IMG/VR virus record: IMGVR_UViG_3300045988_057586
Span: 1-43,677 of that record
Strand: one strand, 5' to 3'
From: a virus
Length of the DNA stretch: 43,677 nucleotides
Notes under the pieces: generated by a model
The model's input: only the letters and a program-made list of their open reading frames with translations
What the model was told of the DNA's origin: nothing
The model's database searches: none
Position numbers and translations under genes: made by a program
In this document: positions 40,241-40,563 of the stretch, in pieces
How positions within the stretch are numbered: the stretch's first letter is position 1
Layout of the letters: the number at the start of each line of letters is the position of its first letter

Positions 40241-40269
40241 AACAAGAAAAACCGCCTGAAAAGGCGGTT
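40241..40269 (-). terminator. Intrinsic terminator oriented for minus-strand transcripts
   Basis: AACCGCCT-GAAA-AGGCGGTT stem (8 bp). The U-run is present only on the minus strand (TTTTTCTTGTT). Confidence 0.55.
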
Positions 40270-40271
40270 CA

Positions 40272-40301
40272 TTGACAGGGTTCGTCAGCGTATGCTATAA
40301 T
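40272..40301 (+). promoter_or_regulatory. Near-consensus sigma-A promoter, rightward
   Basis: TTGACA at 40272-40277, an 18-nt spacer ending in TGC, and TATAAT at 40296-40301. Confidence 0.7.
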
Positions 40302-40380
40302 ACAAACGGACGCTGTTACATATAGCGGTCAGACCCTCTTTTCCTTTCCCGCAGTCTGCGGCAGGAAGGAGGTGGCGCGA

Positions 40381-40455
40381 ATGCAGAAGAAAGCATTTCA
40401 GCTTTTTATGTGTGCGGTCATTGTACTGTACATTTTCTGTATAAAAGCGCGATGA
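40381..40455 (+). CDS. 24-aa hydrophobic peptide MQKKAFQLFMCAVIVLYIFCIKAR (type I toxin-like)
   Basis: GGAGGTG lies 7 nt upstream of the ATG. The SD can pair with the upstream TTCCTTTCC. Single TM-like core flanked by basic residues. Confidence 0.55.
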   Translation: MQKKAFQLFMCAVIVLYIFCIKAR

Positions 40456-40535
40456 CCGCTCGTCTGATCCACGAACGGTCATCTAAATGAACGGTCTATA
40501 GGGTCTGACTGCTGTAACAGCGTCCCTTTGGTTAT

Positions 40536-40563
40536 ATTATAGCACACGCTCCGGCTTTGTCAA
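40536..40563 (-). promoter_or_regulatory. Near-consensus sigma-A promoter, leftward (convergent with 40272)
   Basis: On the minus strand: TTGACA (40563-40558), a 16-nt spacer ending in TGC, and TATAAT (40541-40536). Confidence 0.65.

Follow-up and report, generated by a model that had tools for sequence, protein, structure and literature searches.

The window analysed here is the whole of IMG/VR virus record IMGVR_UViG_3300045988_057586 (positions 1 to 43,677; 43,677 nt), and the element in question is a compact unit at ~40241–40590, immediately upstream of an XhlA-holin-amidase lysis cassette. Our analysis makes it likely that this unit is a self-contained type I toxin-antitoxin (TA)-like cassette, carried in a prophage as an accessory insert (moron). 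Several features expected of a type I TA system were found: a small hydrophobic open reading frame (ORF) that appears to be coding, an mRNA whose predicted folds would block translation, and, at the sequence level, an antisense gene with its own promoter, its own terminator and complementarity to that mRNA. A first reading of the letters alone (the sequence-only reading) had proposed either an undescribed type I TA system or an antisense-gated leader for the lysis genes, and had named conservation of the peptide and covariation of the stems in relatives as checks. The comparison of copies favors the first proposal, given the conserved ORF, the predicted occlusion of the Shine–Dalgarno (SD) sequence and start codon, the 5′–3′ helix closing the mRNA, the antisense promoter and terminator, the multiple and tandem copies on mobile elements, and the lack of a match to a described family; toxicity of the peptide is presumed.

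Copies of the unit were collected from IMG/VR phages, human-gut metagenomes and genomes by combining exact-pattern scans, broader patterns with an nhmmer profile, a metagenome scan and a genome scan. The exact repeat-pair pattern was found in 18 IMG/VR contigs and 4 genome contigs. The metagenome scan matched at least 120 contigs, many of them named as human-gut assemblies, and the genome scan gave 20 contigs, 14 labelled Agathobaculum and the others Butyricicoccus or unclassified Clostridia bins. A loose pattern (TTTTCCTTTCC...GRAAGGRGG) returned mostly chance matches in unrelated phyla, which were removed with the nhmmer profile. At least 122 full units were recovered, 95 of them distinct. 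Strains with the unit include A. butyriciproducens DSM 100391 (in NZ_QEKJ01000004.1) and A. hominis M2, which has at least five copies.

The plus-strand ORF at 40381–40455 encodes a peptide of 24 amino acids (aa), MQKKAFQLFMCAVIVLYIFCIKAR, in which basic termini flank a hydrophobic core of ~17 residues. An SD sequence, GGAGGTG (40368–40374), lies 6 nt 5′ of the ORF, and the TGA stop codon falls inside a central hairpin described below. Among 22 distinct ORFs, the ratio of nonsynonymous to synonymous polymorphism (pN/pS) was 0.31 in the peptide frame vs. 1.2–1.4 in the other two forward frames. The minimum numbers of substitutions at codon positions 1, 2 and 3 were 14, 13 and 31, a third-position excess, and internal in-frame stops were absent from all 22. 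These signatures indicate that the ORF is under purifying selection and genuinely coding.

The first peptide type is present in 102 of the 122 recovered units as 30 variants, with the consensus M-x-K-K-A-F-x-L-[FL]-x-C-A-[VA]-[IV]-[LV]-L-Y-I-F-C-I-K-A-[RHC], and a second subtype of 23 aa, MRRFVKIVIWALLLLHILLIKAH, in 5 of 122. Taking both subtypes together, ~107 of the 122 units retain an intact ORF, the kind of peptide conservation in relatives that had been named as a check. Carriers of the second subtype are Agathobaculum metagenome-assembled genomes and metagenome contigs (L250, L251, L155, L245 and L241), in which the ORF has diverged while the repeats, the SD lock and the hairpins are retained. 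None of five peptide variants had an exact counterpart among 15 billion predicted proteins, and a literature search for type I TA systems in Faecalibacterium or Agathobaculum and for fragments of the peptide returned nothing relevant. Two further coding candidates were rejected. A minus-strand ORF of 65 aa (40285–40482) has a pN/pS of 0.81 over the part overlapping the peptide ORF, has no SD, and starts within a hairpin stem; a GTG start at 40372, which would give 27 aa, falls within the SD.

A scan of window positions 33000–43677 on both strands against the sigma-70 consensus found exactly two perfect (12/12) matches, and these face each other around the 24-aa ORF. P_R, the predicted promoter of the peptide mRNA (plus strand, 40272–40301), reads TTGACA-18-TGCTATAAT, with transcription predicted to start (+1) near 40308. 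P_L, the predicted promoter of an antisense RNA (minus strand, 40536–40563), reads TTGACA-16-TGCTATAAT, with a predicted +1 near 40529. Both –10 boxes are TATAAT, each preceded by TG (extended –10). Sequence conservation jumps from 0.58 to 0.97 exactly at 40308, supporting the predicted P_R +1. The –35 consensus is kept more strictly in P_L, where TTGACA occurs in 94 of the 95 distinct units, than in P_R, where TTGACA occurs in 62, TTGACT in 17 and TAGACA in 13; P_R has TGCTATAAT as its extended –10 in 62 of 95. Part of the constraint on the P_L –35 comes from its overlap with the terminator stem of the mRNA.

Both promoters are contained in an imperfect inverted repeat of three collinear arms, 40287–40348 vs. 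40489–40550, whose core pattern, GGACGCTGTTACA-N-GTCAGACCCT, is found at two places in the window where chance predicts 0.00. The 5′ (long) copy at 40308–40337 on the plus strand has an internal loop of 4–5 nt at 40320–40323 and pairs with the 3′ (short) copy at 40500–40525. The short copy, to which no single strand is assigned, has two roles: the mRNA 5′ end would pair with it, and the antisense RNA 5′ end would be transcribed from it. Convergent consensus promoters at 40272–40301 and 40563–40536, set in an imperfect inverted repeat, were the starting point of the sequence-only reading, and the scan and the repeat search each returned them.

Transcription from P_R to the right terminator would yield a toxin-like mRNA of ~280 nt (40308–40587, plus strand). 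The minimum free energy (MFE) of this RNA is –132.4 kcal/mol, compared with a mean of –80.6 kcal/mol for shuffled sequences (z = –11.7). The MFE fold contains a 26-bp helix between 40308–40337 and 40500–40525 that closes the 5′ end onto the 3′ region, a start-codon helix, two hairpins within the ORF, the central hairpin and the right terminator. In the translation lock (40340–40374), the anti-SD UUUCCUUUC at 40340–40348 pairs over 9 bp with GGAAGGAGG at 40364–40372, which includes the SD core GGAGG (40368–40372), and the helix is stacked on a small hairpin at 40349–40361 (CGCAG/CUGCG). In the free mRNA the predicted unpaired probability of the SD bases GGAG is at most 0.111 and that of the last G is 0.40; with the antisense target blocked, all five core bases are at or below 0.014. 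Since the SD core is paired with or without a blocked antisense target, the primary transcript appears to be closed to translation, like several known type I toxin mRNAs.

Comparison among units supports the same structure. RNAalifold, run on 29 diverse units, recovered the 5′–3′, anti-SD/SD, start-codon and central helices unprompted, with 19 covarying pairs. None of 500 shuffles and none of the slid controls reached the covariation of the named structure; 91% of cells were paired vs. 28–51% with partners slid, and 20 pairs had changed on both sides. Within the 5′–3′ helix 96–98% of cells are paired, 40312/40521 is G-C (74 units) or A-U (15 units), and 40327/40510 is an invariant G-U (95/95 units). 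Compensatory changes in the small hairpin give G-C in 75, A-U in 10 and U-A in 2. Sequestration of the SD by the upstream UUUCCUUUC around a small hairpin and long-range pairing of the RNA 5′ end with 40500–40525 had both been suggested from the letters alone; each is present in the MFE fold and in the RNAalifold consensus, and the stems of relatives do covary.

The mRNA is predicted to end at a right intrinsic terminator (40551–40586, plus strand), which the earlier reading had overlooked. Identified from the fold and the wobble pairs, it consists of a stem of 40551–40561 with 40568–40577 followed by GGCGUUUUU, that is, GGCG and then UUUUU at 40582–40586. It overlaps the P_L –35 and sits between the unit and the XhlA-like gene, and is predicted to insulate the lysis cassette from the unit.

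In the opposite direction, a start 7 nt past the P_L –10 would give an antisense (antitoxin-like) RNA of ~89 nt (40441–40529, minus strand), which most likely ends at the central hairpin (40451–40483, minus strand). This hairpin, also overlooked before, is a predicted antisense terminator on the grounds of a terminator scan, covariation (compensatory changes in 6 of 13 pairs) and wobble pairs; its minus-strand tail is GCGCUUUUAU, with GCGC and then UUUU at 40446–40443. The leftward RNA had been taken as fully antisense to the ORF, a claim that does not hold if transcription stops there: the ~89-nt RNA overlaps the 3′ untranslated region (UTR) of the mRNA but no more than the final 15 nt of the ORF. 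It folds at –32 kcal/mol (z = –4.6) and is perfectly complementary to the mRNA at 40441–40529, with a free-energy difference (ddG) of ~–91 kcal/mol for the duplex. Because the repeat is inverted, the two RNAs carry the same, not complementary, 5′ sequence; the first 26–30 nt of the antisense RNA are identical to the mRNA 5′ end.

The variable spacer at 40484–40499, unstranded in our annotation, is unpaired in both predicted RNAs, which makes it a candidate nucleation and specificity region. It is the least conserved segment (majority fraction 0.62 vs. 0.96 in the flanking repeat), and would permit cognate specificity among multiple copies. An outer (left) intrinsic terminator for leftward transcription (40241–40270, minus strand) has a stem of 40250–40256 with 40263–40269 and a U-run at 40241–40249, the T-run being on the minus strand only. 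A hairpin at 40269–40250 with a U-run only on the minus strand had been noted before, and the terminator scan (40249–40270) agrees. The left terminator probably serves as a backstop for antisense read-through; it is also found in chromosomal and tandem copies, and is retained in L345, a contig without the rest of the unit.

Wobble pairs counted over the 95 distinct units assign these structures to strands, as a G-U pair on the plus strand is an A-C mismatch on the minus strand and vice versa. Three structures favor the plus strand: the anti-SD/SD helix (G-U 265, A-C 6), the right terminator (G-U 204, A-C 49, from polymorphic U-A/U-G columns) and the inner part of the 5′–3′ helix (G-U 170, A-C 26, mostly from two fixed columns). 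The central hairpin (G-U 3, A-C 150) and the left terminator (G-U 8, A-C 46, with one column dominating) favor the minus strand. Three fixed G-U columns in the anti-SD/SD helix imply that it forms only in the plus-strand RNA, and the counts for the central hairpin imply that it pairs fully only in the minus-strand RNA. The wobble pattern therefore indicates a plus strand that is a locked mRNA with its own terminator and a central hairpin that belongs to the minus-strand RNA.

Several observations weigh against a type I TA assignment. The SD is sequestered in every predicted state, and no translation-on state is predicted. Given the 4-nt GCGC spacer before its U-tract, the central terminator may be leaky and the length of the antisense RNA is uncertain. 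The repeat copies are conserved at 0.95–0.97, above what base pairing alone needs, and the wobble signal that places them on the plus strand is due mainly to two fixed columns; from this very high conservation, a protein- or DNA-level role of the repeat is possible. In ~10 of the 122 units GTA or GTT replaces the start codon, and in ~5 a frameshift or nonsense codon interrupts the peptide ORF. Profile searches with four peptide variants (one variant against Pfam, three against NCBIfam and two against PHROGs) matched no family, and so no known toxin family in Pfam or NCBIfam, at the low power of a 24-aa query. The GTA- and GTT-start units with an otherwise intact ORF are L092, L136, L162, L171, L188, L193, L196, L154 and L212; these may be silenced toxin copies or may use another start.

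The alternative that survives best is a small membrane-protein gene under cis-antisense tuning, with a non-lethal peptide that would act in superinfection exclusion, membrane-protein modulation or signalling. The sequence evidence is of a conserved, translated-looking ORF with antisense control, not of toxicity; the peptide has no homology to known toxins in Pfam, NCBIfam or PHROGs, and many genomes keep copies of the unit. We nevertheless consider this alternative rather unlikely, since the combination of multi-layer translational occlusion, a stricter antisense promoter, tandem amplification and recurrent start-codon loss is typical of type I TA systems (PMC8594479).

A second alternative, also raised by the sequence-only reading, is an antisense-gated leader or timing device that controls the XhlA-holin-amidase cassette through P_R read-through, the right terminator and P_L. 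Phage copies of the unit always lie immediately upstream of, and co-oriented with, a lysis cassette, on several backbones (the window, L009 and L014), and late transcription would meet both a terminator and a convergent promoter within the unit. Among the 95 units with enough flanking DNA to be scored, 32 are followed within 1.5 kb by a gene detected as XhlA, holin or amidase. None was detected for the other 63, which include chromosomal tandem arrays among housekeeping genes, next to MATE transporter, amidohydrolase and hcp-like genes, so the obligate linkage that such a leader calls for is lacking. In A. hominis, for example, a tandem pair is flanked by genes for a MATE-type transporter and an amidohydrolase, and an hcp-like gene lies close by (assignments read from translations only). 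Some units stand alone, while others form tandem arrays; the largest, in L031, has four, and L019, L022, L095 and others have two.

Sister phages argue in the same direction. Of those with an XhlA-like protein 87–93% identical to that of the window, 16 carry the unit and ~10 are without it, and in the cultured Faecalibacterium phage FP_Brigit no more than a short spacer precedes the XhlA homologue. A blastn search against GenBank phages matched the XhlA-like gene only and not the unit. Contig L345 (IMGVR_UViG_3300045988_100089, ~2440–2500) is an exact empty site, in which the left hairpin runs straight into the XhlA ribosome-binding site and the equivalent of window 40271–40593 is missing, with a TC dinucleotide flanking; this suggests a clean loss or gain of the cassette. 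Purifying selection on the peptide ORF would be needless for a pure leader, and the conserved plus-strand terminator separates the unit from the lysis genes. We regard control of lysis as highly improbable; presence and absence among sister phages, together with the non-lysis contexts, argue that the unit is an accessory, portable cassette rather than part of the lysis operon.

Least probable of all is that the inverted repeat acts as DNA, whether as an invertible switch for the nearby tyrosine recombinase, as the ends of a miniature transposable element or as twin repressor operators: its conservation beyond pairing needs, the mobility of the unit between contexts and a tyrosine recombinase ~800 bp upstream in the window (directly adjacent in L009) would suit such a role, but the central segment was inverted relative to its flanks in none of the 122 recovered units (the long copy always adjoining the anti-SD and the short copy P_L), the long and short copies keep fixed differences in 95 of 95 units, no recombinase adjoins the chromosomal copies, the conserved terminators are external to the repeats, and the recombinase has a better candidate substrate in 58-nt inverted repeats within the tail-fibre genes. 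The twin-operator variant, with a protein operator on the repeat, is possible.

These 58-nt repeats, 93% complementary, lie at 37218–37275 and 38191–38248, with related shorter copies (window 37054–39467). Their arms fall within a plus-strand tail-fibre ORF (36647–37621) and a minus-strand tail-fibre-like ORF (37824–38405), both of which match PHROG tail-fibre families, and the tyrosine recombinase (38448–39467) is encoded directly downstream; the arrangement looks like an invertible host-range switch. A further tyrosine integrase, encoded at the window's right end (42353–43660, minus strand; Pfam Phage_integrase, 5.5e-21), is probably the prophage integrase, and terminator-like hairpins occur at 42268–42302 and 43546–43580. 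The phage region also contains a tRNA gene at 22659–22730 (Rfam tRNA, 57.7 bits). Between XkdX and the unit, a 68-aa ORF (40034–40240) matches no Pfam, NCBIfam or PHROGs family and is conserved among sister phages whether or not they carry the unit.

As a type I TA-like cassette, the unit would work as follows. P_R would drive the ~280-nt mRNA for the 24-aa hydrophobic peptide, a presumed membrane toxin, and the convergent P_L the ~89-nt antisense RNA ending at the central hairpin, with read-through caught by the left terminator. The mRNA would be kept silent by the anti-SD/SD helix over the ribosome-binding site, by pairing of the start codon and by the 26-bp helix between its 5′ end and the 3′ UTR, and would terminate at its own terminator just 5′ of the lysis genes. 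By analogy with TxpA/RatA and BsrG/SR4, the antisense RNA would nucleate at the single-stranded variable spacer and at complementary loops; a long duplex would then form, displacing the imperfectly paired 5′ end of the mRNA. The invariant G-U and the 4–5 nt internal loop in the intramolecular helix mean that the intermolecular duplex should win. The duplex would mark the mRNA for decay, and peptide synthesis would stay off while the element is present.

As their 5′ sequences are identical, the antisense RNA and the mRNA 5′ end would compete for one 3′ UTR site. Tentatively, and with low expectation, we suggest that the shared, near-invariant 26–30 nt constitute a functional switch in which the antisense RNA mimics the mRNA 5′ end, wins the 3′ UTR site and unlocks decay of the mRNA. 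The extra conservation could then reflect an element for a host RNase or RNA-binding protein, and the module in a prophage may throttle read-through into the lysis genes.

Type I TA systems easily escape notice, their peptides being too short for annotation. The unit would be the first candidate for an RNA-controlled toxin family in Agathobaculum, a common butyrate-producing gut genus, and in its temperate phages. More than 100 natural variants show which bases pair, and on which strand, and so provide a mutational map for mRNA locking and antisense specificity. Should the peptide prove toxic, it would be a possible counter-selection marker or prophage-stability determinant in gut anaerobes, for which few genetic tools are available.

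In Gram-positive type I families, including TxpA/RatA, YonT, BsrE/G/H and SprG/SprF, the overlap between antisense RNA and mRNA is partial, on the 3′ side, and usually extends into the ORF (PMC8594479, T1TAdb paper). The 3′-overlapping antisense layout of the unit matches this organization. The closest likeness is to the Bacillus subtilis systems TxpA/RatA, BsrG/SR4, BsrE/SR5 and YonT/SR6, which are likewise Gram-positive, located in prophages or the skin element and built around a small hydrophobic peptide, and in which convergent antisense RNAs overlap 3′ UTR sequence and reach into the ORF end (PMC8594479). The unit differs from them in its shorter peptide (24 aa), which has no detectable homology, in an RNA without an Rfam match, in the pairing of the mRNA 5′ end with the antisense-covered site in the 3′ UTR, and in the 5′ sequence shared by both RNAs. 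An Rfam scan of 39900–40900 gave nothing at the gathering threshold and only chance-level matches at E ≤ 10 (E ≥ 1.2), and no covariance model of the known antitoxin RNA families (RatA, SR4-type, Sok, Sib, RNA II and others) matched this region.

The par locus (Fst/RNA II) of Enterococcus faecalis plasmid pAD1 has convergent RNAs, an SD held in a 5′ structure and a helix between the 5′ end and a near-terminator segment that stabilizes the toxin RNA. The unit resembles par in its convergent RNAs, its sequestered SD and its intramolecular 5′-end helix. In par, direct repeats give the two RNAs complementary 5′ ends, and the terminator is common to both strands; in the unit the repeats are inverted and the 5′ ends identical, the central hairpin is minus-specific and the mRNA has a separate terminator. 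The peptide did not match the Pfam Fst model. In the Gram-negative hok/sok system of plasmid R1, Sok binds the 5′ leader and the mok frame, and the leader ORF is required. The 5′–3′ fold-back closure of hok mRNA (the fbi element) and its occluded start resemble those of the unit, whereas the peptides are unrelated.

Clostridioides difficile prophages carry convergent type I TA systems whose antitoxins have short and long forms and which stabilize the prophage (PMC7699646). CD0977.1/RCd11 and its relatives share with the unit a location in a clostridial prophage, convergence and sigma-A type promoters (PMC7699646). The unit may resemble them in having two antitoxin lengths as well, with a possible longer antisense form that would end at 40241. 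Their toxins, of 34–47 aa with a charged C-terminal tail, are set apart by their descriptions from a peptide of 24 aa that is basic at both ends. By sequence or model, or for the C. difficile set by description, the unit appears to belong to none of these named families. It probably represents an undescribed family that is not conceptually new and that fits the known Gram-positive type I TA pattern.

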